Source: Nitrospirota bacterium | GTDB taxonomy: Bacteria; Nitrospirota; RBG-16-64-22 | NCBI GenBank assembly: GCA_016195465.1 | Contig: JACPZO010000065.1 | Span: forward strand, 1 to 55,251 | Direction: 5' to 3' | Length of the DNA stretch: 55,251 nt | Shown here: positions 8,711-26,136 of the stretch, one piece after another | Position numbering within the stretch: the stretch's first letter is position 1 | Layout of the letters: each line of letters opens with the position of its first letter | Notes under the pieces: generated by a model | Told to the model about the DNA's origin: nothing | Database searches by the model: none | Seen by the model: the letters and a program-made list of their open reading frames with translations, nothing else | Position numbers and translations under genes: made by a program

Positions 8711-9762
8711 CGCTTCGGGAGAAGACCGAACCCGTCCCGCCGGCCGGTGACGGGGGCGACGTTCCACGCTCGGACGGCCCGGACCCCCGGGTCGCGTTCC
8801 ATGAGCGCCGCTCCGGCGGCGAGCTGGAGGCCGCCCATCAACTCGAACGCCTCGCCAAGGAGCGGGCGGACGCCGAAGGCCCGGTCGGGGGAAGGGACGA
8901 TCGGGGATTCGTCATCCGTCCACTCCCGGTTGAGCGAGCCGGAGGGAAGGACGAAATCCGAGAAGGGGGAAGGGGGAGGGGAGAAGGGAGAAGGGGGGAT
9001 CGGGTTTCTTCCGGGATCCGCAGGGGCGTTTCCTGCACGAGGGAGCGCCTCGATGCGCGCCAGAACCGTTTTTGCGTTCTCCGATCTTTCCAGGACGGCC
9101 ACGACGCCTCCCTCGCAGAGGGGGGATTCGCCGCCCCGTCCGTCCGCCAAATGGAGACGTCCGGCGACGCGGGGACCGCAGGTCCCGTACCCTTCACGCA
9201 GGATCGGGTGGTCCTCTTCGACGGTCCCGACGAGAGCGATGTCGATCTCTCCGGCGGCGAGGGCGGCCGCGGCCCTGCGGAGGAGGTCGTGGAACCGCGT
9301 TCCGTCGCCGACAACGGTGATCGCCGGGCCCGTGATCCCGAGCGCGATCGAGATGTGCGAGGCGGCGACGTTGAAGAGAGATTCGGAGAACGTCGCGGGA
9401 CTGACGGACGCCGGGCCCTGCGTGACGAGGGATTGGTGAAACGACTCGGAGAAGGCGATCGCGCCGTGGCAGGTCGCCATGGAGACCCCCGCGAGGGACG
9501 GCTCGGGGACGGGAAGGCGGTCGGCCCGGCGGAGGGCCTCGTGGGCCGCGACGACGCCGAAGAGGGACGGCCGGGAAAGGCGGCGGAGGTCCTTCGAAAC
9601 GTGGACGGATGGGTCGAAGTCGGGGACGGCGCCGTTTCGGCGGAACGGCTGTCCCGATCTGAACGCCTCCCGGCGCTCGAGGAGGCCCGCAAGAAGCGCG
9701 TCCGCGCCGACGCCGAACGGCGAGACGACGCCGATTCCGGAGAGGACGATGTCTTTCAGCAT
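8707..9762 (-). CDS. KS-like / chain-length-factor-like protein (no catalytic Cys)
   Basis: MLKDIVLSGIGVVSPFG shows a KS N-terminal fold. The active-site position reads VVGDGTRF. It contains a PPSPFSPPPSPFS tract encoded by a 39-nt homopurine run. Confidence 0.65.
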   Translation of the reverse strand: MLKDIVLSGIGVVSPFGVGADALLAGLLERREAFRSGQPFRRNGAVPDFDPSVHVSKDLRRLSRPSLFGVVAAHEALRRADRLPVPEPSLAGVSMATCHGAIAFSESFHQSLVTQGPASVSPATFSESLFNVAASHISIALGITGPAITVVGDGTRFHDLLRRAAAALAAGEIDIALVGTVEEDHPILREGYGTCGPRVAGRLHLADGRGGESPLCEGGVVAVLERSENAKTVLARIEALPRAGNAPADPGRNPIPPSPFSPPPSPFSDFVLPSGSLNREWTDDESPIVPSPDRAFGVRPLLGEAFELMGGLQLAAGAALMERDPGVRAVRAWNVAPVTGRRDGFGLLPKR

Positions 9763-10961
9763 TGCGTCAGGACGAGGCAGGCGTTGTTTCCGCCGAAGCC
9801 GAACGAGTTCGTGAGAACGGCGCGGACGGGAACGCGCCGGGCGCGGTCCGGGACGACGTCGATGGGACAGGAGGGATCGGCCGTCGTGAAGTTCGCCGTC
9901 GGATGGACCATCCCGTCGCGGATCGCGAGGGCGGACACGATCGCCTCGACGGCGCCCGCCGCGCCCAGGAGGTGGCCGATCATCGACTTCGTCGACGAGA
10001 CGGGGACCCGTGCAAGCCGCGGTCCGAAGACGGCGTTCAGGGCGGCGACCTCCGCGCGGTCATTGACGGGGGTCCCCGTTCCGTGGGCGTTGACGTAATC
10101 GATGTCGTCGGGGCCGACGCCCGCGTCGCCGAGCGCGATGCGGATGGCGGCGGCGGCGCCTTCGCCGGACGGAGCGGTCCGCGTCGTGTGGTAGGCGTCC
10201 GACGTCGTCCCGAAGCCGCGGACGCAGGCGATGGCCTTCGCCCCCCGGGCGGCGGCCCGTCCGGCTTCCTCCAGGACCAGGACGCCGACGCCTTCGCCCA
10301 GGACCAGGCCGCGCCTGTTCAAGTCGAACGGCCGGCAGGTCTCGGGATCGAGGAGTTGGAGGGAATCGAACCCCGCGAACGTGAACCTGCACATCGTGTC
10401 GTACCCGCCGGCGATGGCGAGGTCGATCTCCCCGCTCCTGATCCGGCGGAACGCGAGGCCAATGGCCGTCGCCCCCGAGGCGCAGGCGGTGGAGACGGTC
10501 TCGGGCATCGTCGGGACCTGCCAGCGGGCGGCGAGGTTCTCGCCCTGGGAGAACGCGAGGTAATCCGCGAGGGCCCCCGGAGCGGGCTTCGCGCCGGAGA
10601 GAAGCGTCCGGTGAAACGCCTCGCCCTGAAGCATCCCGCCGAGCGTCGTGCCGAGGACGATCCCCGCCCGGTCCGTCGCAAGCTCCCGCCCGTCGAGGCG
10701 CGCCTTGGAGACGGCTTCATCCGCCGCCGCGAAGAGCAGGTGGGAGGCGCGGTCGAGTCCCGCCGCCCGAGGACCTCGCGCCCAGCGGTTCGCGTCGAAC
10801 GGCGACGCCTCGCCGGCGATCTTCGTCCGGTACGGAGACGCGTCGAACGAGCGGACGGGCGCGAGCCCGGATGTTCCGGCGAGAAGCCCGGTCCATGTTT
10901 CTTCCGCTGAGTTCCCGAGGCAGGTGATCGTGCCCAGGCCGGTGATGACGACGCGACGCAT
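9756..10961 (-). CDS. beta-ketoacyl-ACP synthase II-like (FabF family)
   Basis: 401 aa with MRRVVITGLG, STACASGATAIG, NAHGTGTPVND, KSMIGHLLGAAG and NSFGFGGNNA. This is a full FabF signature. It is the first gene of the KS operon. Confidence 0.9.
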   Translation of the reverse strand: MRRVVITGLGTITCLGNSAEETWTGLLAGTSGLAPVRSFDASPYRTKIAGEASPFDANRWARGPRAAGLDRASHLLFAAADEAVSKARLDGRELATDRAGIVLGTTLGGMLQGEAFHRTLLSGAKPAPGALADYLAFSQGENLAARWQVPTMPETVSTACASGATAIGLAFRRIRSGEIDLAIAGGYDTMCRFTFAGFDSLQLLDPETCRPFDLNRRGLVLGEGVGVLVLEEAGRAAARGAKAIACVRGFGTTSDAYHTTRTAPSGEGAAAAIRIALGDAGVGPDDIDYVNAHGTGTPVNDRAEVAALNAVFGPRLARVPVSSTKSMIGHLLGAAGAVEAIVSALAIRDGMVHPTANFTTADPSCPIDVVPDRARRVPVRAVLTNSFGFGGNNACLVLTQC

Positions 10962-11012
10962 TGGATGCGCATGATAACAAAGGGAGCGGGGAGGAGCAAG
11001 GATGCCGCCCGG

Positions 11013-11402
11013 CTAGCGGACGATCTTGAGACCCAGATATCGCTCCATGGGGTCGAAATCCGCGTCGGAGTGCAGAAGGGAATGGCCGTTCTCGATGCAG
11101 AACGTGCCGATGACCATGTCAACCGTCCGCGGAGTGACGCCCTTCGCGCGGAGCAGCCGATCGTTCAGAGCGCTGGCGACGGCGATGTCCCTCCCCATCA
11201 TTTCCCTGAATTCGAACAAGCTCAGGAGCTTGAGCGCCTCGCGGAAATCGCGCTCATGTTTGAATCCTTGAAGGACCTCGGTCAAGACGACGTCCCCGGT
11301 GAGGATCGGTTCGCGGCCGAGAAGATCGTCCAGCCGATCGGTCTGGGGCGTGGAGCGGCCGTTGAAGTAGTCGATCCAGACGGAGGCGTCGACGACGATC
11401 AT
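11013..11402 (-). CDS. vapC: type II toxin VapC (PIN-domain ribonuclease)
   Basis: MIVVDASVWIDYF...LTEVLQG...D..IG..C...G..LLH.D.DF shows the acidic residues of a PIN domain. ATGA overlap with vapB. Confidence 0.9.
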   Translation of the reverse strand: MIVVDASVWIDYFNGRSTPQTDRLDDLLGREPILTGDVVLTEVLQGFKHERDFREALKLLSLFEFREMMGRDIAVASALNDRLLRAKGVTPRTVDMVIGTFCIENGHSLLHSDADFDPMERYLGLKIVR

Positions 11403-11593
11403 CGGTCACGCCGCATCTCGGAGAGATCTCCCTCCCATCGGAGTTTGCCCCGGGCGCGGCGGACTTGCGTCTGCTGTTTCAAGCGGACGAGGAGGCGCAA
11501 ACCCGTCTCCACCGTTTCTCTCTTGGTGGCGAGCCCGGAAAGCTTCATCGCCTGCGCCATCAGGTCGTCGTCGATGGCGATATTCGTTCTCAT
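11399..11593 (-). CDS. vapB: type II antitoxin VapB family
   Basis: 64 aa: MRTNIAIDDDLMAQAMKLSGLATKRETVETGLRLLVRL. This is the typical N-terminus of VapB antitoxins paired with PIN toxins. Confidence 0.85.
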   Translation of the reverse strand: MRTNIAIDDDLMAQAMKLSGLATKRETVETGLRLLVRLKQQTQVRRARGKLRWEGDLSEMRRDR

Positions 11594-11714
11594 CGGAGAG
11601 CCCCCCTTGCGTGTGTATCAATCATCACGAATATACACATTCGGGGATGTTCTCGTCAACAGGCTTGCCGTTTGCAGCCGATTCGGGATTTGCCGGAGTG
11701 AAGGCGAGATGCAA

Positions 11715-11860
11715 AACCTGACGGAACCTGACGGAAGTCAAAGATTATAGACCTGACCCCATGGGTGTGCCATGGGTGTGCGGCTGATGCATAAGTCAAG
11801 CCCGAGAGGAATCGCCCGAGAGGAATCGCTGGCCCCTGGCGTAGTTGCCCCTGGCGTAGT
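11715..11860. repeat. array of four different perfect tandem doublets
   Basis: AACCTGACGG x2 (11715-11734), CCATGGGTGTG x2 (11759-11780), CCCGAGAGGAATCG x2 (11801-11828) and GCCCCTGGCGTAGT x2 with a 1-nt spacer (11832-11860). Confidence 0.9.
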
Positions 11861-11980
11861 CTTGGCGCCTCAGGAATGGGAGCGTATACTGTTCGAGCAC
11901 CTTCGGGGGCGGGACGCCCTTTTTGGGGGGGACGGATGATCATGAGGTCACAAATTGGCGCCTCAAGTATAGGGGCCCGG

Positions 11981-12611
11981 ATGCCTGATTCGAGCCTTGC
12001 TCCGACGGAGCGCATCGAGCGTGCGATCATGCTCATCCGTGGCGAACGGGTGATGCTGGATGCTCATTTGGCCGAGCTCTATCAGGATGCTGAAAAAGTC
12101 CATCCATGGCTTTTTCAGCCACGACTTGCGCGAAGTGAATTCGCGCAAGTCTTTCAAATCGCTTGACTTCAAATCTTCGCGATTTGGCGGTGCATCCCTG
12201 CACCGCACGCAAGCTGCTGTTTTGCGGGAAGAGTTTGCAAACTTGAGGTCACAGATTGTGACCTCAAGTTGGGGCGGCCGGCGGTATCCTCCCTATGTTT
12301 TCACCGAGCACGGCGTGGCAATGCTGTCCAGCGTCCTGCTAAGCCCCCGCGCTGTTCAGGCCAACATCGCGATCATGCGGGCGTTCGTTCGTCTTCGAGA
12401 GACGCTGGCCATCCACAAGGAGCTGGCGGCCAAGCTGATGAGTCTGGAGCGCAAGATCGCGGGACACGACGAGAGTATCCGCACGTTGTTCGAGGCCATT
12501 CGCCAGCTCATGGCACCACCGGAGAAGGCGCGTCGCAAGATCGGCTTCCGCGTGGGGGAGAGGGGTCCGGCGTATCGGGTGCGGCGCCTGCGCCGGGGGT
12601 CATCGCGGTGA
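11981..12611 (+). pseudogene. ORF6N-domain (KilA-N-like DNA-binding) gene disrupted by a multi-hairpin element
   Basis: The N-terminal part ...ERIERAIMLIRGERVMLDAHLAELYQ is in one frame. The C-terminal part EEFANLRSQIVTSSWGGRRYPPYVFTEHGVAMLSSVLLSPRAVQANIAIMRAFVRLRE is in another frame. The roughly 27 conserved residues normally between them are replaced by the repeat at 12085-12226. Confidence 0.7.
12085..12226 (+). repeat. multi-hairpin repeat element, copy A
   Basis: About 85% identical over its first ~78 nt to 22611-22688. Hairpins lie at 12090-12118, 12123-12151 (12-bp perfect stem), 12155-12186 and 12187-12206. Confidence 0.85.
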
Positions 12612-12742
12612 TGGGGACCGGCCGGGCGGAGTTTCAGTCGGGCGGGTGAAAGTCAACGTGGGGAACAACAGAAACTCCTGCAGCCAACGCCTTTTTCGAG
12701 CCGAACGAGGGGCAATTGTGCATGGCGAACGTGGGGTTGCGA

Positions 12743-12763
12743 CCGTGACCTGATCTGTCACGG
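12743..12763. promoter_or_regulatory. inverted repeat CCGTGAC-N7-GTCACGG upstream of the methyltransferase (possible operator)
   Basis: Perfect 7-bp arms about 75 nt upstream of ATG 12839. No cognate regulator was identified. Confidence 0.2.
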
Positions 12764-12838
12764 GGGTGTGGTAAGAGCATTGATCGCAGTCCTGGTTTCG
12801 GGCAGAATTCGCGGAACCAATGCCCCGCAGGGTGTCAC

Positions 12839-15800
12839 ATGGCGCAAATAGAGAGACAACAGACGGTCCTTGGCATTCTCCAGAACCTCCGGGATCTGGA
12901 AGGGTTGAAGAAACTCTTCTGGGAGGAACTGAACTACGAGCGCCAAAACAAGCCCTTGAGCCCGCGCCAGTGGCCGGACAGCGCCAGGCAGGTTCTTGCG
13001 GAAGACCCGATCCTCTTTGCCAGCGGCGGCGAGGACGGCGCCTTTCACGTGGTTTACTGCCGCCTGTCTTCGCCCGATTCGAGACGCGGCCATCAGCGGC
13101 CTGTCGTGAGCCAGTTGCTTCGCGACCATCCTTACGCCTTGTTCGTCTTTTCCAACAAGAGCCAATCCGTATGGCATTTCCTGAACGTGAAGTATGACGA
13201 TGCCGCCGAGAAGAGGCGCCTTGTCCGCCGCATCACGGTGCGCCCCGGCGAAGGGTTGAGAACGGCGGCGGAACGGATGGCGACGCTGGATCTTCAGGCC
13301 ATCAGTCCGGACTTGTTCGGCCTCCCGCCCATGCTGATCCAAAAGCGGCACGATGAGGCCTTCGACGTTGAGAAGGTCACGAAGGACTTCTACCAGGAGA
13401 TCGCCAACTGGTACTTCTGGGCGCGCGAACATGCCGAGTTCCCCAAGGATGCTCCGGTGGATGCCGATGGAAAACCATCCTTGTCGTTGATTCGCTTGCT
13501 GACGCGGCTCATCTTCGGCTGGTTTCTGCGAGAGAAGCGAAATCCCGAGACCGGCGCGGGTCTGATCCCGGACAGCCTGTTCGATGCCCGGCGCATGAAG
13601 GATTTGTTGAAGGACGCATCACCGGAGGCTTGCACGTACTACACCGCCATTCTGCAAAACCTGTTCTTTGCCACGCTGAACACGGAGATGGATGCCGCCA
13701 AGAGCGGCACAGGCGCGCCCGGCCAGACCCCGGTCCGGCGATTCCTGGATGAAGGGGACGGCCAGCGCAGCGGCGAGCATATGGTTCACCAACTCTGGCG
13801 GCACGCCCGGCAACTGCGCGACCCTGTCGCCCTGGAAAAACTCCTGCGTGACATTCCCTTCCTGAACGGCGGGCTTTTCGAATGTCTGGACGACCGTGTG
13901 CAGAAGGGCGGTTCGCCATACACGGTGGAGGTGAGGATTGACGGTTTCGCCACCGACCCGAAGAAGCAACCCAAGCTGCCGAACTTCCTGTTCTACGGCG
14001 CCCCGCAGGCCGCCGACCTTTCCGAGGCGTACGGCGATGCCGCCCGCCGCCGCGAAACCGTGCGGCCTTTGCTGGACATCCTGAGCCGCTACAACTTCAC
14101 GCTCACCGAGAACACGCCCTTCGATCAGGAAGTCGCGCTCGACCCCGAATTGCTCGGACACGTCTTCGAAAACCTGCTGGCCGCCTACAATCCCGAAACC
14201 GGCACGGTCGCCCGCAAAGCCACCGGCTCGTTCTATACCCCGCGCGTGGTCGTGGACTGGATGGTGGATCAGGCGCTCTTGGTGTACCTGAAAACCGTTC
14301 TAACCACGGATATCCCGGATGGCACGGATAGGAAGTTGAAGCGCCTGCTCTCCTGGGAAGACGAAGGCCACGACTTCAAACCCGCCGAGGTCGAGAAGCT
14401 GATTGACGCCGTTGACGGATTGAAGGCCATTGACCCGGCCTGCGGTTCCGGCGCGTTCCCGATGGGCATGCTCCAGAAACTTGTGCATGTCCTCAGAAAG
14501 CTCGACCCGGAGAACATGGGCTGGCGGAAACGGCAGGTCAAGGCGGCCGAAGCCATCGAAAGCGGACCGGCCCGCGAGGAAGCGCTCAGGGCCATAGAAC
14601 GCGCCTTCGCGCGCGACAACGACGACTACGGCCGGAAGCTGTACCTCATCGAGAACTGCCTCTATGGCGTGGACATTCAACCCATCGCCGTGCAGATCGC
14701 CAAACTGCGCTTCTTCATCTCCCTCGTGGTTGACCAGTCCATTGACCCCAAGGAAGAGAATTACGGCATCCTGCCTCTGCCGAACCTCGAAACCAAGGTG
14801 GTGGCGGCCAATTCGTTGCTCGGCCTGCATCGCGGTCAACTCCTGCTCGGCTCAAACGAAGTCAAACGTCTGGAAACTGAATTGCAGAAGGTCCGGCACG
14901 ACTACTTCACGGCGCGAAGCTACAAGCGCAAGAAGGAACTGCGGAAAGAGGACAAGCGGCTGTGCGACGAACTGGCCAAGGCGCTGGAGTCCAGCGGCGA
15001 ATGCACGCCCTACGATGTCAAGCGGCTGGCCGGCTGGAACCCGTACGACACCAACACCCATGCGCCGTTCTTTGATCCCGGCTGGATGTTTGGCCTCGCG
15101 GTAGGGCGCGGTGTCCCGACCGCGCCGCGGACGGCTGGGGACAGCCGTCCCTACCAAGCGGGGGATGGCCCCTTCGACATCGTCATCGGCAACCCGCCCT
15201 ATGTCCGGCAGGAGGAATTGAAGAACCAGACCGTCATCGGGAGCGACGGCAAGCCGCGGCCGCTCAAGGACGCCCTCAAGGGCCAGTACGAATGTTTCAC
15301 CGGCACGTCTGACCTCTACGTCTATTTCTTCGAGCGGTCCCTGCAACTGCTGCGCACCGGCGGCGTGTTGAGCTTCATCACCAGCAATAAGTACTTCCGC
15401 GCGGGCTATGGCGAACGACTGCGAACCTATCTCGCTTATGCGACCCGGCCCAGCGTGGCGCTGGATTTCGGCGATGCCCCGGTCTTCACATCCATCGCCT
15501 ATCCGGCGATCCTCGTGACGCAGAAGACCCGTTCCGTGGAGTTGGGCAAACTGCCCAAGAAGGTTGAGGCCGGGGATTGGGAGTCCCGCGTCATGACCTG
15601 GACGCCCGGCCCGGACATCCGCGAGTTTCCGGACATCTTCGCGCGCGACGCCTTCGGGCTCGCCCAGCGCGACCTCAAACCCGACGGCTGGCGGATGGAA
15701 AGCCCGGTCAGCCTCCGCCTGATGGAACGTCTGAGAAAAGCTGGCACACCACTACGTGAAGTCGTTGGTATCCGCGTGTTTCGTGGAATCACCACTGGTT

Positions 15801-16522
15801 TGAACGATGCCTTTGTTGTGGATCGTCTTGTCCGCGACCGGCTCATCAGCGAGCATCAGTCGTCGAAAGAAGTCCTCAAGCCCTACCTGCGCGGACGGGA
15901 TGTGAAGCGGTGGCGGTGCGAACCCCAAGACTTGTGGATCATCTTCACACGGCGTGGTTGCGACATCAAGAAGTACCCGGCTATCCATGAGCACTTGAAG
16001 CAGTTCAAGGAACGACTGATGCCGGGCGTTTCTGGTGGACGTAAACCGGGCAGTTACGAGTGGTACGAAATTCAAGACGACATCGCTTACTGGCCGGAGT
16101 TTGAGAAGAGGAAGGTGATCTCGACGAAGATATCCATTCAGCCAACCTTTTCCGTGGATTCAGATGGCTTCTTTCTGGGCAATACCTCGTACTTCATCCC
16201 AGCCGGTGACAAGACTCTGTTTGTTGCAGCACTCCTAAACTCAAGAGCTTTCTCGGGCTATGCGAAACGAGTATTTGTCGAGAAGCAGGGCGGTTGGTAC
16301 GAGGTCCAGCCCCAAGGACTGGAGCAGTTTCCCATCCCACCTGCCACACCTGCCCAGGAAAGGGAGATTGAATCCCGCGTGGAATGCATCCTCGCCGCGA
16401 AGAAGGCTGATCCGGCGGCGGACGTGTCTGCGTTGGAGCGGGAGATTGACGCGCGGGTGTATCGGCTGTACGGGCTGACGCCCGAGGAGATCAGGATTGT
16501 GGAGGGCAGCGCCCAGCGTTGA
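12839..16522 (+). CDS. Eco57I/PglX-type N6-adenine DNA methyltransferase with a TaqI_C-like specificity domain
   Basis: 1227 aa. SAM motif IDPACGSGAFPMG. Catalytic DIVIGNPPYV, with NPPY at 15191-15202. C-terminal FRGITTGLNDAFVV...WYEIQD...GGWYEVQPQGLEQFPIP matches the TaqI_C-type target-recognition module. No PD-(D/E)xK nuclease motif was recognised. Confidence 0.9.
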   Translation: MAQIERQQTVLGILQNLRDLEGLKKLFWEELNYERQNKPLSPRQWPDSARQVLAEDPILFASGGEDGAFHVVYCRLSSPDSRRGHQRPVVSQLLRDHPYALFVFSNKSQSVWHFLNVKYDDAAEKRRLVRRITVRPGEGLRTAAERMATLDLQAISPDLFGLPPMLIQKRHDEAFDVEKVTKDFYQEIANWYFWAREHAEFPKDAPVDADGKPSLSLIRLLTRLIFGWFLREKRNPETGAGLIPDSLFDARRMKDLLKDASPEACTYYTAILQNLFFATLNTEMDAAKSGTGAPGQTPVRRFLDEGDGQRSGEHMVHQLWRHARQLRDPVALEKLLRDIPFLNGGLFECLDDRVQKGGSPYTVEVRIDGFATDPKKQPKLPNFLFYGAPQAADLSEAYGDAARRRETVRPLLDILSRYNFTLTENTPFDQEVALDPELLGHVFENLLAAYNPETGTVARKATGSFYTPRVVVDWMVDQALLVYLKTVLTTDIPDGTDRKLKRLLSWEDEGHDFKPAEVEKLIDAVDGLKAIDPACGSGAFPMGMLQKLVHVLRKLDPENMGWRKRQVKAAEAIESGPAREEALRAIERAFARDNDDYGRKLYLIENCLYGVDIQPIAVQIAKLRFFISLVVDQSIDPKEENYGILPLPNLETKVVAANSLLGLHRGQLLLGSNEVKRLETELQKVRHDYFTARSYKRKKELRKEDKRLCDELAKALESSGECTPYDVKRLAGWNPYDTNTHAPFFDPGWMFGLAVGRGVPTAPRTAGDSRPYQAGDGPFDIVIGNPPYVRQEELKNQTVIGSDGKPRPLKDALKGQYECFTGTSDLYVYFFERSLQLLRTGGVLSFITSNKYFRAGYGERLRTYLAYATRPSVALDFGDAPVFTSIAYPAILVTQKTRSVELGKLPKKVEAGDWESRVMTWTPGPDIREFPDIFARDAFGLAQRDLKPDGWRMESPVSLRLMERLRKAGTPLREVVGIRVFRGITTGLNDAFVVDRLVRDRLISEHQSSKEVLKPYLRGRDVKRWRCEPQDLWIIFTRRGCDIKKYPAIHEHLKQFKERLMPGVSGGRKPGSYEWYEIQDDIAYWPEFEKRKVISTKISIQPTFSVDSDGFFLGNTSYFIPAGDKTLFVAALLNSRAFSGYAKRVFVEKQGGWYEVQPQGLEQFPIPPATPAQEREIESRVECILAAKKADPAADVSALEREIDARVYRLYGLTPEEIRIVEGSAQR
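15100..15155. repeat. palindromic three-way-junction-like mini-element inside the methyltransferase CDS
   Basis: The outer stem GGTAGG (15100-15105) pairs with CCTACC (15050+100=15150-15155) and encloses two hairpins: GCGCGGT..ACCGCGC (15106-15125) and GACGGCTG ggga CAGCCGTC (15130-15149). It encodes AVGRGVPTAPRTAGDSRPYQ just upstream of NPPY. Confidence 0.75.
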
Positions 16523-16528
16523 CCAAGC

Positions 16529-18394
16529 ATGCCAAAGGACCTTTTCCCAAAACTATGTCGGCCTGACACACTGAAGATTGCCGCAAATTACGTTCACGAC
16601 GACAAGAAGGACGACTTCATTCCGGACACTTTTAGAAACCAGGACTACATCTTCAATCTGGAAGAGAACCTGACCCGGCTAGCGCAGTCTCTGAGAAATG
16701 GCACCTATCGCCCCCGCCCCCTGAAGGAGATCGACGTTCCGAAAGGCGGCTTGGCCGTCCGCCCCGGAAGTTCGCTCGACTTCGAGGACCACGTTGTTCT
16801 GTTCGCGATTGCCTACCTGCTGGCACCGATCATGGACAGCGTCTTGTCAAAGAGCGTCTATCATTTCCGCGTCAAGAAGAAGGGGAAACGCCCGCATCCC
16901 GGCAAGCTTTTCCAGAATGAAGGCCCTGTTCTCGTTCGGAGAGAGGTCCGTCAAGATCTTCGGATCTTCGGCGACTGGTATGAGGCATGGCCCGAGTTCG
17001 TTGCCGAAGCGCAGAGCATCTACGAGCAGGAAGGATTCAGCTTCATGGTTGAATCCGACATCAGCGCCTATTTCGAGAACATCAGCCATCCACTACTTGC
17101 CGATATTCTCCGTCAGTGCGCTCCAAGCCAACTGCACCTGATAAACCTCTTGATGGAGATGCTTTCGTTCTGGGCCACGCCATCCTTGGCCGGTTACAGG
17201 CCCCAGCGCGGCATCCCGCAAGGTAACGAGGTTTCGAGTTGGCTCGGGACTCTGTACCTGGTGGAAATGGACACGGAACTTTTCAAACTTCAGCGCAAGG
17301 GATTGATAAAATATGTCCGGTACGTGGATGACCTCAAGATCTTCACGAAGGACCGCAGGAGCGCGCGATCCGTCATTTTCACAATCAACCGGATTCTGCG
17401 GTGCCTGCATCTAAACATGCAGTCAGCCAAGACGGAAATCTTTGAGGGCGAAGAGGTCCGAAAGCGGCTTTACGACGAAGGTGTTGCCCAGGTCACGGAG
17501 ATCATAAATGGACTACCGGAGGACCCGACGAAGATAACGCGCAAGCAAAAGCGGGACGCGGAGGCGGCAGTCCGGCCAGTTTTCAGAAGCCGATTTGCCT
17601 ACAAGCGGGAGATGGGGAAGGAAGACCTCCGGCTGTTCAAAAGGACGCTTACACTGCTGATGCGGATACACTCGCCTATGGCCGTCAGGCAGTCGCTTAA
17701 GTGGATTTGGAGACAACCGGCGTTGACGGAGAAGGTCTCCCGATATCTCTCCGCCTGGATGGGCCGCAAGTCAGTGCGGGCTGGCGTGGAAAGCGCCCTG
17801 TTGGGCGAGGAAGAACTTTTCGACTCCCAGTATCTTTACCTCTTGCCGATGTTCAGGCGTTCCCCGGTGCTGAACTCCAGACACAAGCGCCCCCTCATGC
17901 GCTTGGGATGCGGCGGGGCCTATCATTGGGCGGTTCGCGCTGAGGCGTTCCTGAGTCTTATTCTGTTCGCTTTGGATGATCGCGATTTCAAGAGGCTCCA
18001 TCGGCGTTACTTCAAGGAAACGTCTGCAACCGTCAGGAAGACAATTCTCACCCTGTTCTTAAAGGCCCCGGATCGCGCGAAGAAGCTTATGTTCTGCGCA
18101 ACCATCCAAGAACCAGAAGAGGAAACCAACCGGTTCCGCAAGTATGTGTGGGCGCTTAAGAACAGCCCAATACTTGGACAACCTGCTCTTGCGGTTCTAG
18201 GGCGGATCGAAAAAGACCCTGCCCGACTCGTTGCGACGCTGTTGACAGCCCTTCAATCGAGCAACATCGAGACTCGGAAAGCGGTTCAGCGGATTGCCGT
18301 CGAACGTCTCGCAGACGCCCCGTCTAAACTTGCGCGAATCGCTTATGAGCGAATTTCCAACGATGGCATGCGCATGATTGAGGGAGGAAAATGA
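16529..18394 (+). CDS. reverse transcriptase (UG/Abi-like, C-terminal alpha-helical-repeat domain)
   Basis: 621 aa. RT motifs are YRPRPLKEIDVPKGGLAVRPG (1-2), ESDISAYFENI (3/A), GIPQGNEVSSWLGTLYL (4/B), YVRYVDDLKIF (5/C, YVDD at 17321-17332) and LHLNMQSAKTEIF (6-7). The last ~300 aa are helix-rich repeats. It starts 6 nt after the MTase stop. Confidence 0.9.
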   Translation: MPKDLFPKLCRPDTLKIAANYVHDDKKDDFIPDTFRNQDYIFNLEENLTRLAQSLRNGTYRPRPLKEIDVPKGGLAVRPGSSLDFEDHVVLFAIAYLLAPIMDSVLSKSVYHFRVKKKGKRPHPGKLFQNEGPVLVRREVRQDLRIFGDWYEAWPEFVAEAQSIYEQEGFSFMVESDISAYFENISHPLLADILRQCAPSQLHLINLLMEMLSFWATPSLAGYRPQRGIPQGNEVSSWLGTLYLVEMDTELFKLQRKGLIKYVRYVDDLKIFTKDRRSARSVIFTINRILRCLHLNMQSAKTEIFEGEEVRKRLYDEGVAQVTEIINGLPEDPTKITRKQKRDAEAAVRPVFRSRFAYKREMGKEDLRLFKRTLTLLMRIHSPMAVRQSLKWIWRQPALTEKVSRYLSAWMGRKSVRAGVESALLGEEELFDSQYLYLLPMFRRSPVLNSRHKRPLMRLGCGGAYHWAVRAEAFLSLILFALDDRDFKRLHRRYFKETSATVRKTILTLFLKAPDRAKKLMFCATIQEPEEETNRFRKYVWALKNSPILGQPALAVLGRIEKDPARLVATLLTALQSSNIETRKAVQRIAVERLADAPSKLARIAYERISNDGMRMIEGGK

Positions 18395-19032
18395 GCGAAG
18401 AAGCAAGGAGATCGTTCGACGGGTCTGACAGGCCCGGCAGGACGGACCGGAGAACCCGCCTGATCCCAAAATACGGCGGGTACCGCGGGCTCCGCAGTTT
18501 CCAAACCGCCCAACTGGTCTATGACGGTACGGTGGTCTTCTGCGGCCGGTTCATCGAAAAACGCTCCCGCACCCACGATCAGATGGTGCAGGCGGCGCGG
18601 AGCGGCGTGCAGAACATCGCCGAGGGGAGCATGGCCTCGGCCACCTCCCGGAAGACCGAACTCAAGCTCACCGGCGTGGCGCGGGCCAGCCTGGAGGAAC
18701 TGCTGCTGGACTACGAGGACTTCTTGCGGCAACGCGGATTGCGCCTCTGGCGCAAGGACTCGCCCGAGGCGCTGGCGGTGCGGAACAAGTTCCGGTCTGA
18801 CTCGTCAGACAAGTCAGACAGGTCGGACAGGCCGGACAAGTCTGACTCTTATTCTATTACCACGGCCACGCCGGAAGCGGCGGCTAACACGCTGATTTGC
18901 CTGATCAACCAGGCGAGCTATCTTCTGGGGCGGCAATTGCAGAAGCTGGAAGAGCAATTCCTGAACGAGGGCGGATTCACCGAGAAACTGTACAAGGCGC
19001 GAACGGAACAACGGCGGGGAGATTTCAAGTAA
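18391..19032 (+). CDS. four-helix-bundle protein (23S rRNA IVS / Avd family) with an SD[KR] repeat linker
   Basis: YRGLRSFQTAQLVYDGTVVFCGRFIEKRSRTHDQMVQAARSGVQNIAEGS...ARASLEELLLDYEDFL matches the four-helix-bundle (TIGR02436-like) pattern. ATGA overlap with the RT stop, and a GAGGGAGG Shine-Dalgarno inside the RT 3' end. Confidence 0.8.
   Translation: MSEEARRSFDGSDRPGRTDRRTRLIPKYGGYRGLRSFQTAQLVYDGTVVFCGRFIEKRSRTHDQMVQAARSGVQNIAEGSMASATSRKTELKLTGVARASLEELLLDYEDFLRQRGLRLWRKDSPEALAVRNKFRSDSSDKSDRSDRPDKSDSYSITTATPEAAANTLICLINQASYLLGRQLQKLEEQFLNEGGFTEKLYKARTEQRRGDFK
18796..18849. repeat. six tandem 9-nt units (TCNGACNNG) encoding SDS-SDK-SDR-SDR-PDK-SDS
   Basis: The units are TCTGACTCG TCAGACAAG TCAGACAGG TCGGACAGG CCGGACAAG TCTGACTCT. 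A shorter related run lies at 18424-18450, near the 5' end of the same gene. Confidence 0.85.
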
Positions 19033-22000
19033 TGCCGACGCATGACATCATTGACAACCGAACCGAGAAGCTGGTGGACCACCTGAAACGGATTCTCGAG
19101 ACCAGCGAGCGGGCGCGGTTTGCGGTCGGCTACCTTTTTCTCTCCGGCCTGACCAGCGTTGCCAAACGGCTTCTAAATCTGAAGGAACTCCGCCTGCTGA
19201 TCGGCAACACGACCAACAAAGAGACCGTCGAGCTATTGGCTGAAGGATACAAGCGGCTGGACCTGGCCGCCGAGGAGATCGAGAAACAGGTCTATCCGAA
19301 ACGCTCGGAAGCCGGGAAGATTGCTAAGGAGACCGCGGGCAATCTGCGGAATTCAGTCGAATGGATGGACCAGACGGACGACGCGCAGGGGTTGATCGCC
19401 GGGTTGATCCGCATGATCGAAGAAAAGCGCCTGAAAGTTTGCATTTACACGAAGGGCCGACTCCACGCGAAGGCGTACATCTGCGACTACGGCAAGGTGT
19501 TTGACCTGGTGGGCAATGAAGTTGAGCGGCACGAGAAGGGGATCGCGGTCGTCGGCTCCTCGAATCTCACTCTGGCCGGTCTCACCCACAACACCGAGTT
19601 AAACGTCCTGGTCCAGGGCAACCAGAACCACAAGGAGCTTGTCCGCTGGTTCGACGACCTCTGGAAGGAGGCGCAGGAATTCGATGAAACCCTGATGACC
19701 GAGCTCAAGGCATCCTGGGCGGCGGCGCAGGTCCGGCCCTACGACATCTACATGAAGACGCTCTACGCTCTTGTGCGCGACCGGCTCGAGAACGAGGACG
19801 AGCAGGAGTTGCTTTGGGACGACGACATTTTCCGCAAGTTGGCGAGTTTCCAGAAGGTGGCCGTCCGGCAGGCCATCCAGATCGTCCGCGACTACGGCGG
19901 CGCGTTTGTGTCCGACGTGGTGGGCCTGGGCAAGAGCTACATCGGGGCGGCGATCGTGAAGCACTTCGAGCGCACCGAACACGCGCGGCCGCTGATCGTC
20001 TGTCCGGCCCCGCTCGTGGAGATGTGGGAGCGGTACAACGAGGTTTATCAGCTCAATGCCCGCGTGCTTTCGATGGGATTCCTGCGGGAAGACGAGGAAG
20101 AAGGCGTTGCCCGGCTGCTCAACCGCTACAAGGACCGCGACTTCGTTCTCGTGGACGAAAGCCACAACCTCCGACACCCGGACACGCAGAGGTACAAGAT
20201 CGTACAGACGTTTCTTTCGACGGGACGGCGTTGCTGTTTCCTCACGGCCACGCCTCGGAACAAGAGCGCATGGGACGTTTACCACCAAATCAAGCTGTTT
20301 CACCAGGACGACCGGACGGACTTGCCCGTTGATCCGCCGAACCTGAAGGAATACTTCAGGCTCATTGACAGGACCGAGCGCAAACTTCCCGACCTGCTGG
20401 CCAACATCCTCGTTCGCAGAACGCGCCAGCACATACTGCGGTGGTACGGATTCGATGCCGAAACGCACGAGCCGGTTGATCCGAGCCGATTTCGGGACTA
20501 CCTGGAGGGCAAGCGAAAGGTTTACGTGCTGGTCGGCGGGAAACACCAGTTCTTCCCCAGGCGCGACCTAGAAACGATTGAATACAGCATCGAAGACACC
20601 TACCAGGGCCTTTATCATGAGTTGCGCGGCTTTCTTGGCAAGCCCCGGAAGGGCAAACCTCCCAAAACCGCCCCGGTCGGCGAGATCACCTACGCGCGAT
20701 ACGGTCTCTGGCACTACGTGAACGCCGAGAAGCAAAAGAAAGAGCCTTACACGAATCTTCAGCGGGCCGGGGCGAACCTGCGCGGGCTGATGCGCATCCT
20801 GCTCTTCAAGCGGTTTGAGTCCAGTGTTTATGCCTTCCGGGAAACGATGAAGCGGCTCCTGAAGATTCATCAAGCCTTTCTCAACTCGTTGGACGCGGGC
20901 GTCGTTCCTGCGGGCGAGGACGCGCAGGCCATCCTTTACGAAAGCGATATCCTGGAGGAAGGCGACCTTGTTGACGCACTCCGGGAGGTCTCGAAGCGGT
21001 ACGACGCGAACGACTTTGACGTGAAGACGCTTCGGATGCACATCGAGCACGATATTGAACTGCTTCAGAAGATACTGGAACTCGTATCCCCGATTACGCC
21101 GGACAAGGACGCGAAGCTCCAAATGCTGAAAAAGAGGCTCGCCGACAAACCTTTGAGGGGGGCGAAACGCTTGATCTTCACGCAATATGCGGACACCGCG
21201 AAGTACCTCTTTGCCAACCTGAATTCCGATGGAAAGGACGCGGAGGTCGAGGTCATCTTCAGCGGCGACAAGAGCAAGGAGAGGATCGTCGGCCGCTTCG
21301 CGCCCAGAGCGAACCCCGAGTATCGTTTCTCCAGGGGCGAGGCTGAACTGATGACAGTGATCGCGACCGATGTCCTGGCTGAAGGGTTGAACCTACAGGA
21401 TTGCGACAACATCATCAACTACGACCTCCACTGGAACCCCGTCCGGCTCATCCAGCGTTTCGGCCGCATCGACCGGATCGGGTCGGAACACGAGCGCATT
21501 TTCGGATTCAACTTCCTGCCCGAGACGGGCATCGAGGCGAACCTGAAGCTTCACGAAAAACTGGAACGACGCATTCAGGAGATTCACGACACCATCGGGG
21601 AGGATTCCGAGATTCTGGACCGAACGGAGAGACTGAACCCGGAGGCCATGTACGCGATCTACGAGACCCGCGGTGGCGCGCCCGCGCAGTTGGATTTGTG
21701 GGGGGGCGCGGAGGACGAGTTTCTTGACCTGAACGAAGCGGAAGAAATCCTGCGGCAGTTGCAGAAGGATGATCCGGCGGCATATGAGCGGGTTGCGAGT
21801 CTTCGGGACGGCATCAGAACGGCCCGGTTGTCCCCGCAGCGCGGGTTGTTCGTTTTCTGCCAGGCCGGGCGCTATCAGCAGTTGTTCCTGCTCGATGAAA
21901 AAAACGAGGTTGTTTCCCGGGACGTTCCGAAGGTGGTCGGCGCGGTCAAGTGTGCCCCGGACACCAAAGCCGCCCCGTTGCCGGACGGGTACAACAAGGC

Positions 22001-22373
22001 CGTCATGGCGGTACAGAAAAAATTCGCGGAAGAAGTCCGGCACCGCGAAGCCGAGCGGACATACACCGCGAATCTCACGCACGGGCAGCTTTACGTTCTC
22101 CGGGAGATGCGGATCCTGTTCGAAGCCACGCAAGACGAGGACGTCAAGCGGCATGTCAACGTCATGGAGAAGGTCTTTCGCGGCTCGTTGACGGGCGCGG
22201 TCAAACGCGAACTGAACCAACTGCGCCGCAACGGCGCGACGGGCGAAAGCCTGCTCAAGCACCTGATTCGAATCTATGACCAGCACAACCTGAAGGATGC
22301 CTCAGCCCGGCGAAGCCTCGAAATGGCAGACCGGCCGATTCCCCGGATCATTTGCAGTGAGGCCTTCGTTTAG
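19032..22373 (+). CDS. PLD-family nuclease domain fused to an SNF2-family helicase
   Basis: Starts MPTHDIIDNRTEKL (TAATG overlap with the upstream stop). Single HKD motif RLHAKAYICD (19464-19487) plus VGSSNLT. Helicase motifs are VGLGKSY, LVDESHNLR, FLTATP, ATDVLAEGLNLQD and WNPVRLIQRFGRIDRIGS. 1113 aa. Confidence 0.9.
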   Translation: MPTHDIIDNRTEKLVDHLKRILETSERARFAVGYLFLSGLTSVAKRLLNLKELRLLIGNTTNKETVELLAEGYKRLDLAAEEIEKQVYPKRSEAGKIAKETAGNLRNSVEWMDQTDDAQGLIAGLIRMIEEKRLKVCIYTKGRLHAKAYICDYGKVFDLVGNEVERHEKGIAVVGSSNLTLAGLTHNTELNVLVQGNQNHKELVRWFDDLWKEAQEFDETLMTELKASWAAAQVRPYDIYMKTLYALVRDRLENEDEQELLWDDDIFRKLASFQKVAVRQAIQIVRDYGGAFVSDVVGLGKSYIGAAIVKHFERTEHARPLIVCPAPLVEMWERYNEVYQLNARVLSMGFLREDEEEGVARLLNRYKDRDFVLVDESHNLRHPDTQRYKIVQTFLSTGRRCCFLTATPRNKSAWDVYHQIKLFHQDDRTDLPVDPPNLKEYFRLIDRTERKLPDLLANILVRRTRQHILRWYGFDAETHEPVDPSRFRDYLEGKRKVYVLVGGKHQFFPRRDLETIEYSIEDTYQGLYHELRGFLGKPRKGKPPKTAPVGEITYARYGLWHYVNAEKQKKEPYTNLQRAGANLRGLMRILLFKRFESSVYAFRETMKRLLKIHQAFLNSLDAGVVPAGEDAQAILYESDILEEGDLVDALREVSKRYDANDFDVKTLRMHIEHDIELLQKILELVSPITPDKDAKLQMLKKRLADKPLRGAKRLIFTQYADTAKYLFANLNSDGKDAEVEVIFSGDKSKERIVGRFAPRANPEYRFSRGEAELMTVIATDVLAEGLNLQDCDNIINYDLHWNPVRLIQRFGRIDRIGSEHERIFGFNFLPETGIEANLKLHEKLERRIQEIHDTIGEDSEILDRTERLNPEAMYAIYETRGGAPAQLDLWGGAEDEFLDLNEAEEILRQLQKDDPAAYERVASLRDGIRTARLSPQRGLFVFCQAGRYQQLFLLDEKNEVVSRDVPKVVGAVKCAPDTKAAPLPDGYNKAVMAVQKKFAEEVRHREAERTYTANLTHGQLYVLREMRILFEATQDEDVKRHVNVMEKVFRGSLTGAVKRELNQLRRNGATGESLLKHLIRIYDQHNLKDASARRSLEMADRPIPRIICSEAFV

Positions 22374-22610
22374 CGAGCAGGGGACGGCCTGTGGATTCCG
22401 ACGCATTTTGCTCACCGCTCCGATGCGTATCGGGGCGCTTTGGGGACCCGGCCGTTTTGGACTTTCGGGGACTTTCGTTTATCTCATTACCGACGGACGG
22501 CGGGACATGCAGACGTTGCTCGCACGACGGCTGTTCGGGACGTGACAAGTTCGTACCTATCGCCGAAAGACGAATTTCGGGTTCTTGCGGACGAGGCTGC
22601 GCTTCTAACT

Positions 22611-26136
<3,526 letters not shown>

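Follow-up and report, generated by a model that had tools for sequence, protein, structure and literature searches.

A UG21 reverse transcriptase and a four-helix-bundle gene as probable passengers of a two-gene, restriction-modification-like operon in a Nitrospirota bacterium

It is well established that Hma, BREX, DISARM and type I restriction-modification (R-M) loci carry embedded defence genes (Payne et al. 2024; PMC11411939; PMC12839542), and among those described by Payne et al. 2024 a DRT is represented by a single instance of DRT type III only. In this study we analysed an operon in which a reverse transcriptase (RT) of the UG21 group occupies such an embedded position. It is found in a 55,251-nt stretch of DNA from a Nitrospirota bacterium (contig JACPZO010000065.1 of assembly GCA_016195465.1), which as a whole is referred to as the window, and it also encodes an N6-adenine DNA methyltransferase (MT), a four-helix-bundle protein (4HB) and a nuclease fused to a helicase (PS). 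UG21 belongs to class 1 of the UG/Abi RTs and possesses a C-terminal HEAT-like repeat; in the available text of Mestre et al. 2022 (PMC9226505), it is absent from the groups given partner genes, the remaining class-1 groups are regarded as stand-alone proteins with several domains, and its defence association is graded "inconclusive". DRT4 is a single-gene, tyrosine-primed and template-independent synthase of single-stranded DNA which acts by abortive infection, with priming at Tyr125 and catalytic residues D240/D241 (PMC12783706), and class-1 DRTs are described as untemplated (PMC13174585). With regard to the other genes, type-2 BREX-related (BR) systems are defined by a DUF499 AAA+ ATPase and by a stand-alone DUF3780 gene, found in 98% of taxa (PMC12839542).

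The operon comprises four open reading frames (ORFs) on the forward strand, from 12839 to 22373, which are intact and tightly packed:

12839..16522, + strand: MT, core gene 1, gamma-class N6-adenine DNA methyltransferase, 1227 aa (Pfam, PADLOC, PDB sequence matches)
16529..18394, + strand: RT, embedded cargo 1, class-1 UG/Abi RT of the UG21 group, 621 aa (PADLOC, AlphaFold2 (AF2), Foldseek)
18391..19032, + strand: 4HB, embedded cargo 2, 'suffix' protein of the 23S-rRNA-IVP family, 213 aa (NCBIfam, AF2, Foldseek)
19032..22373, + strand: PS, core gene 2, HKD(PLD) nuclease fused N-terminally to an SNF2 ATPase/translocase, 1113 aa (Pfam, PADLOC)

The length of PS is counted from its ATG, whereas the mechanical ORF list begins at the TTG at 18897. 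MT and RT are separated by 6 nt (16523-16528), RT and 4HB overlap in ATGA (18391-18394), and 4HB and PS overlap in TAATG (19030-19034). A scan of the operon for promoters and terminators gave counts that did not exceed the shuffled expectation and was uninformative. An earlier note, made from the letters of this DNA alone, had described the same four genes and junctions, which the sequence bears out; its motifs and domain calls were likewise confirmed by the translations, Pfam and NCBIfam, and profile searches agree with it on the R-M-like nature of the operon.

The central proposal of that note, namely one undescribed four-gene system in which RT and 4HB would together form an integral component, did not survive comparison with other loci. 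For the RT, 80 genome loci of relatives were fetched, together with further RT contexts (L144, L161, L163 and L170-L173 among them); for PS, 80 metagenomic loci of close relatives were sampled (64-89% identity). The four-gene set was not found in any other locus, and the RT/4HB pair recurs in none of the 80 RT-relative loci nor in the further RT contexts. By contrast, MT lies upstream of PS on the same strand in 52 of 84 PS loci; the remaining loci simply lack enough upstream sequence, except L097 and L101, in which tblastn recovers MT. Comparison thus shows an R-M-like operon core made up of two genes, MT and PS. The RT itself is present in one of the 80 loci of close PS relatives (L144), a frequency that covers relatives at 64-89% identity only. 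We therefore read the locus as a two-gene R-M-like system with two independently acquired passengers, of which the RT would be autonomous, with a probability of roughly 0.6. This removes a false lead, as there would be no new four-component RT-restriction machine, and instead documents the MT + HKD-SNF2 pair as a widespread restriction-like system with a hotspot for cargo between its genes.

MT displays the motifs DPACGSGAF and NPPY and matches Eco57I (2e-35) and TaqI_C (4e-11) in Pfam, REase_MTase_IIG in PADLOC (7e-94) and, among PDB sequences, M.BseCI, CamA and M.TaqI. It is composed of an N-terminal domain of ~450 aa, which has no match among PDB sequences, followed by the methylase and a TaqI-like target-recognition domain. 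In agreement with the earlier note, no nuclease domain was detected by Pfam, and residues 1-450 hold no evident PD-(D/E)xK motif; the REase_MTase_IIG match, for its part, recalls type IIG R-M enzymes. Among relatives, MT is far more variable than PS (27-77% identity), as expected for a specificity-bearing subunit.

PS, which we presume to be the restriction subunit, carries HAKAYICD (HxKx4D) and GSSN in its PLD part and GLGKS and DESH in its SNF2 part. Pfam places PLDc_2 at residues 129-211 (2.8e-10), followed by SNF2-rel_dom and Helicase_C (5e-15), and the PADLOC profile C3a139, 'HKD+Snf2', matches at 5e-80; a search of PDB sequences returned generic SNF2 and DEAD-box helicase lobes only. We found 7623 homologues at E <=1e-10, more than 100 of them 70-89% identical. 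Relatives at 75-89% identity come from metagenome-assembled genomes labelled Verrucomicrobia, Phycisphaerae, Chlamydiota, Kiritimatiellia, Deltaproteobacteria and Nitrospirae. PS proteins this similar under such different labels point to recent and frequent horizontal transfer of the MT+PS system, and the pair is very widespread, highly conserved and common.

At the level of whole systems, the MT+PS pair has no match in PADLOC v2 or NCBIfam and is unnamed in the literature searched. The locus resembles DISARM class 1, which also combines a methylase, an SNF2 ATPase and a PLD nuclease, and the correspondence drawn in the earlier note holds in so far as PADLOC gives partial matches to DrmMI (1.7e-26, MT), DrmD (8.5e-37, PS) and DrmC (3e-07, PS). 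It fails on the NCBIfam scores, which are far under the cutoffs (DrmD 146 bits vs 610, DrmC 20.7 vs 133); moreover, the PLD and SNF2 domains are fused in PS, and neither the DrmA helicase nor DrmB (DUF1998) is encoded in the island, the operon consisting of four genes only, as the note had already stated of these two components. DISARM was accordingly rejected. Type-2 BR or Hma-like systems (PMC12839542) share with this locus an N6-MTase, a helicase of the Swi2/Snf2 type with an N-terminal HKD domain, an R-M-like logic and the presence within the locus of backup effectors such as Schlafen, HEPN, PIN and OLD. However, DUF499 had no match in the flanking ORFs of the window nor in large neighbours in L117, L119 and L142, DUF3780 had no Pfam match in any scanned island ORF, and the PADLOC HmaA match spans the C-terminal lobe of the helicase only, so that membership was rejected for want of the defining genes. 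Type III R-M is similar in function, but the nuclease of PS is of the HKD/PLD type, as opposed to PD-(D/E)xK in Res, and the operon is not a member of that type.

Two plasmids from cultured organisms carry the pair as well. The genes abut on pPRO1 of Pelobacter propionicus, and a distant version is found on pSYSX of Synechocystis PCC 6803 (L175, 43696-51129). The latter is the same two-gene unit, with PS at 27% identity over 99% of its length and an MT, Slr6050 (M.Ssp6803IV), whose catalytic core and N-terminal domain are both homologous to those of ours; a toxin-antitoxin pair, VapBC, is inserted between the genes. It differs in its reversed order (PS first), in lacking RT and 4HB, and in its distance (25-27% identity). 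The asymmetric motif GA(m6)AGGC has tentatively been attributed to Slr6050, for which full segregation of a deletion mutant is not achieved (PMC6105098). Such a non-segregating knockout would be expected if the adjacent nuclease-helicase were an active restriction partner. Slr6050 is the sole experimental handle on the MT+PS pair, and Synechocystis, a model cyanobacterium, offers a tractable host in which the core system could be tested.

Among PS loci, the distance from MT to PS varies widely, with extremes of -116 and 9700 nt. In nine loci MT abuts PS, and elsewhere the interval holds cargo from at least 76 gene clusters, including Schlafen/AlbA_2+HATPase_c_4, PHP+AAA, AAA_21/OLD-like ATPases, an SPL/DUF1848-like gene, HEPN+MNT, PIN, another PLD and RhuM; genes outside the MT-PS units are housekeeping genes. 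Comparison of the loci thus shows the interval to be a highly variable cargo slot for abortive-infection and toxin-type genes. One gene pair recurs in the slot, often directly after the RT, and encodes a ~286-aa protein lacking a Pfam match and a ~377-aa SPL/DUF1848-like protein:

L001, 12146-14136: ~286-aa + SPL/DUF1848-like pair
L161, 10059-12049: the same pair
L162, 2175-4165: the same pair
L002, 13028-14167: recurring slot pair
L091, 8730-9866: SPL-like gene, here without an RT

DUF1848 has been reported with methylase-fused UG25 RTs by Mestre et al. 2022 (PMC9226505).

As for 4HB, the Pfam match to 23S_rRNA_IVP is weak (3.4e-05), and NCBIfam assigns TIGR04258 (82.5 bits, cutoff 40) and TIGR02436 (27.1 bits, cutoff 24). 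A PDB sequence search gave no match at E <=1. The AF2 model has a confident core (pLDDT >90), for which the top Foldseek matches are 2GSC (TMt 0.83) and 2RLD, both of the IVP family; Avd is not in the top 50. The description of 4HB as Avd-like in the earlier note is therefore correct at the level of the PF05635 four-helix-bundle superfamily, which we take to include Avd, but not below it. No enzymatic motif was seen in the protein. At least 8000 homologues exist, and those listed or aligned are 71-86% identical; some members of the family are labelled "restriction system protein" or "four helix bundle suffix protein" in one source. The 24 homologues that were aligned are 71-83% identical to the window copy and display a low-complexity SD(K/R)SD tract of variable length between helices, often with another one at the N-terminus, in which the number of repeats differs from homologue to homologue; in the window copy, these tracts are located at residues about 135-152 and 5-22.

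The sampled contexts of 4HB are unrelated to one another and to R-M or RT genes: it follows a pyruvate kinase gene and precedes a GmrSD_N fragment, forms a pair with an ORF6N gene, or stands alone. In L166 (4471-5467) and L167 (223-1219), the start of the 4HB-suffix gene is overlapped by the ORF6N gene, a hint that the two form a small ORF6N+4HB module. 4HB does not stand beside the RT in any of the 80 RT-relative loci or the further RT contexts, and in L084 and L085 it lies between MT and PS with no RT present. The junctions indicate the order of insertion. In L003 and L144, the RT stop codon is located about 9 nt ahead of the conserved PS start, and the junction alignment places 4HB of the window where the last ~8 RT codons and the ~9-nt spacer would be. 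As judged from this alignment, 4HB is a secondary, later insertion into an older MT-RT-PS arrangement. The way in which cargo enters is indicated by L161, in which a 57-aa ORF right after the RT (9889-10062) repeats the N-terminus of PS (17 of 30 residues identical, E 1e-10) and is followed by four cargo genes and then by the full PS gene; this remnant is a footprint of cargo entry by recombination at the nucleotide-conserved 5' end of PS. We conclude that 4HB does not serve the RT as an Avd-type cofactor.

A diversity-generating retroelement (DGR) would likewise place a protein of the broad PF05635 superfamily, Avd, next to an RT. Nevertheless, no template or variable repeats (TR/VR) were found in 10900-23700, where the only long repeat is an 85-nt pair flanking the operon and the other direct repeats are at most 38 nt long (71-95% identity). 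As the RT is also of the UG21 group rather than the DGR clade and 4HB is not conserved with it, a DGR was rejected.

The RT matches the PADLOC profile RT_UG21 over nearly its full length (2.6e-102, profile positions 3-473 of 503) and RVT_1 in Pfam (1.6e-11), and 18 of 18 relatives spanning 30-80% identity match RT_UG21 at <=1e-60. Its core occupies about residues 1-330, with YVDD at 265-268, and is followed by a C-terminal alpha-helical repeat domain (338-620), so that it agrees with UG21 in its YVDD core, its HEAT-like alpha-repeat tail and its single-gene nature. What sets it apart is its location within R-M operons, in the window as well as in about 25% of the sampled loci. In the 18-sequence alignment, 60 columns are invariant, including Y265, D267 and D268, and the polymerase active site is intact. 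The AF2 model (pLDDT 86, pTM 0.87) consists entirely of helical hairpins in residues 338-620. With Foldseek, the core finds group II intron RTs, and the whole chain finds DRT6 (TM 0.50), DRT4/UG15, AbiK, Abi-P2 and AbiA. About 115 residues ahead of YVDD, UG21 proteins have a near-invariant Trp150-Tyr151; the spacing from Tyr151 to YVDD resembles that of DRT4, which we record only as a lead towards a candidate priming residue. The GC content at third codon positions (GC3) is 0.67 in the RT, ~10 points under that of MT, 4HB and PS (0.77-0.79).

Other origins of the RT were considered and rejected. A group II intron is contradicted by the TIGR04416 score (115 bits vs a cutoff of 300) and a retron by models under their cutoffs, and in both cases an Rfam scan of 10000-24000 at E <=0.1 gave no match; because the junctions of the RT measure 6 nt and -4 nt, there is no intergenic room in the operon for a non-coding RNA. 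A phage origin was rejected as IMG/VR viral contigs yielded no relatives. Plasmid matches to the RT are group II introns or distant RTs only.

The genomic contexts of the RT extend well beyond this operon. UG21 RTs are strongly and repeatedly embedded beside methylase or specificity genes of several R-M types. Recurrence in other genomes, which the earlier note proposed to test for the four genes, is found for the RT alone: with RT identities of 30-80%, it accompanies MT+PS homologues in about 10 loci (L001-L003, L008, L022 and L035, and also L144, L161 and L163), but it is seen in just one of the 80 close PS loci, and the RT also occurs in type I and type III operons or alone. Among loci with MT+PS, both MT-RT-...-PS and PS-MT-RT are found as gene orders, and the RT directly follows MT in the window, L001-L003, L022, L035, L144, L161 and L163, with two genes between them in L008. 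Inside type I R-M operons, it is located on the same strand in at least 12 loci confirmed by Pfam and in L172; in L017, for instance, the order is hsdR-hsdM-hsdS-RT with overlapping ends. The RT stands beside a type III R-M system in L171 and L007 and beside other methylases in L170. R-M genes were not found near the RT in L173, and in L005 and L006 the neighbours are an FRG-domain gene and an AbiE pair. In L004 (10001-11881), an RT with 77% identity to that of the window is alone among NADH-dehydrogenase-type genes, so that the RT gene is seen to move by itself as one unit. Only a few nucleotides separate it from its same-strand neighbours, a Nuo51/2Fe-2S-type gene on one side and a gene for a pyridine-nucleotide oxidoreductase on the other. 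Further immediate neighbours of UG21-like RTs are Fic/DOC (4) and SLATT_5 (3), and others include Trypsin+PRTase-CE, Cap4 nuclease and AbiE pairs; a cluster near some RT relatives (c8) consists of ABC-transporter ATPases and is irrelevant.

Independent defence modules that share the strand of a surrounding R-M operon and are transferred along with it have precedents in PrrC in EcoprrI, in TgvAB in a type I R-M operon of Vibrio (PMC11411939) and in the genes of Payne et al. 2024; the embedded gene differs here in being a class-1 RT. In the literature that could be searched, including the papers on embedded defence genes, there is no report of UG21 embedded in R-M operons. Embedding in R-M operons of several types is thus the first coherent genomic signature for this orphan group, and the logic of "guilt by embedding" supports a defence role for UG21, possibly as a guard, which earlier enrichment statistics could not establish. 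The novelty is modest: the affinity of UG21 for R-M operons is new, while the MT+PS pair is common and the UG21 group was already known.

If the reading of a two-gene system with passengers is correct, MT would methylate adenine in a short asymmetric site by means of its TaqI-like domain and so mark self DNA, and the SNF2 motor of PS would translocate on unmethylated DNA, its single HKD domain dimerising to cut. The logic of the core would be similar to that of type III enzymes, with a PLD nuclease replacing PD-(D/E)xK. The slot would have gained first the UG21 RT and later the promiscuous 4HB-suffix gene. The RT would most likely be an autonomous single-gene abortive-infection module, by analogy with DRT4, DRT6 and AbiK, making untemplated, protein-primed DNA that may become toxic once a phage factor appears. 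Co-transcription would then provide layered defence and joint transfer rather than one four-part machine.

Several points weigh against this reading. That PS cleaves, which motif is methylated and that the RT synthesises DNA are all matters of inference, and the RT frequency among PS loci applies to close relatives alone. The position of the RT is not random. An unbiased Pfam scan of the 78 same-strand genes within 300 bp of the RT returned Methylase_S (8), N6_Mtase (7) and Eco57I (6) as the top families, and within 1 kb of the RT, R-M genes account for 19 of 167 genes, compared with 0 of 147 at 7.5-10 kb, which serve as an internal control. These R-M genes are mostly upstream of the RT, with 19% at gene rank -1 and 0% beyond about 7.5 kb. 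In a neighbour-joining tree of the RTs, R-M contexts of different types are interleaved; the subclade of the window is almost wholly of the MT+PS type. Moreover, fusion to methylases, or association with them, is described for other groups of UG/Abi RTs by Mestre et al. 2022 (PMC9226505). Taken together, these observations suggest something more than passive hitch-hiking.

Such a pattern would be accommodated if UG21 RTs were second-line modules functionally coupled to R-M complexes, an explanation which we regard as possible, if doubtful. PrrC is kept latent by EcoprrI and PARIS senses Ocr, and in a comparable way the alpha-repeat tail of the RT might monitor the methylase or specificity subunit, so that a phage anti-restriction protein disabling R-M would trigger toxic DNA synthesis and abortive infection. 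The local enrichment of R-M genes, their upstream position and the prevalence of methylase and specificity families among the immediate neighbours are all consistent with such coupling, as are the occurrence of the RT with three R-M types (type I, MT+PS and type III), the interleaving of these captures on the RT tree, and the position of the RT, usually directly after MT in MT+PS loci of either gene order. The methylase-RT fusions and associations, which concern UG25, UG35 and UG36 (PMC9226505), and the PARIS-like backup modules proposed for BREX and BR systems (PMC12839542) point in the same direction. Nevertheless, many UG21 relatives have no recognisable R-M neighbour, one large clade of the tree has none at all, and the RT of L004 stands alone among redox genes. 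A specific protein-protein interface is also hard to picture when one RT subclade lies beside very different methylases. Recombination hotspots near hsdS or after the methylase could alone explain the position of the RT, and the conserved 5' end of PS and the PS remnant of L161 favour recombination of this kind.

A broader form of the same idea, in which UG21 would constitute a dedicated class of "R-M guardians", recruited repeatedly by type I, type III and MT+PLD-SNF2 systems, next to their methylase or specificity subunits, and sensing a disabled R-M complex or its DNA products before starting toxic untemplated synthesis, appears unlikely to us. If it were true, there would be an RT-based backup layer wired to R-M, of which the window would hold one fully intact example. 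The comparison raises a testable question, whether the RT is autonomous or an R-M guard.

Alternatively, the RT, 4HB or both could be selfish or decaying passengers without a role in defence, tolerated in a permissive slot. The 4HB family is enormous, is scattered over many contexts and has historically been found in 23S rRNA intervening sequences, and the "inconclusive" defence grade of UG21 in Mestre et al. 2022 (PMC9226505) would fit as well. For the RT, however, the intact ORF with all catalytic motifs, the 60 invariant columns, the confident AF2 model, the lack of IMG/VR relatives and the group II intron and retron scores under cutoff speak against decay or selfishness, and the remaining cargo of the slot consists of classic defence and toxin genes. 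We therefore consider this explanation improbable.

A dedicated four-component system (MT, RT, Avd-like 4HB and PLD-SNF2) that would use RT-made cDNA in restriction as a DISARM-like variant is highly improbable and appears largely refuted by synteny: the tight, translationally coupled junctions, the recurrence of the RT with MT+PS in about 10 loci and the partial DISARM similarity of the components would agree with it, but the full gene set is unique to the window, the RT is absent from 79 of 80 close PS loci, MT abuts PS in nine loci, RT and 4HB occur independently, 4HB came late, there are no TR/VR-type repeats, and the NCBIfam DISARM scores are far under their cutoffs.

The operon is part of an island whose GC content is 0.56-0.61, compared with ~0.69-0.70 around it. 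The island and its flanks include the following features:

11000..23500, no strand: horizontally acquired low-GC island with the operon (composition profile, Pfam of flanks, per-gene GC/GC3)
9756-10961, - strand: fabF-like ketosynthase, left flank (Pfam on flanking ORFs)
about 23610-25310, + strand: pyrG, right flank (Pfam on flanking ORFs)
12078..12162, + strand: left copy of an 85-nt two-hairpin direct repeat (repeat search, 85% identity to the right copy)
22604..22688, + strand: right copy of this repeat, 231 nt past the PS stop codon (repeat search)
12060..12611, + strand: ORF6N (KilA-N/anti-repressor-like) ORF, C-terminal half of the domain only (Pfam ORF6N, 3.7e-10)

The two copies of the 85-nt repeat enclose the entire operon. 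Their 25-nt core has exactly two occurrences in 55 kb, with none expected, and each copy forms two strong hairpins (fold z about -5.6 and -6.6), which show one compensatory change. The repeat was sought in all other fetched loci and was not found there; it may form the att-like edge of a mobile cassette or else be a local REP-type element.

The ORF6N ORF matches profile positions 48-86 of 86 only and gives an anti-repressor match in PHROG (5.6e-06). As it holds just half of the domain and its 5' end is made up of the left repeat element, it is probably a remnant. An ORF6N ORF is also located upstream of MT in L127 (4423-4842).

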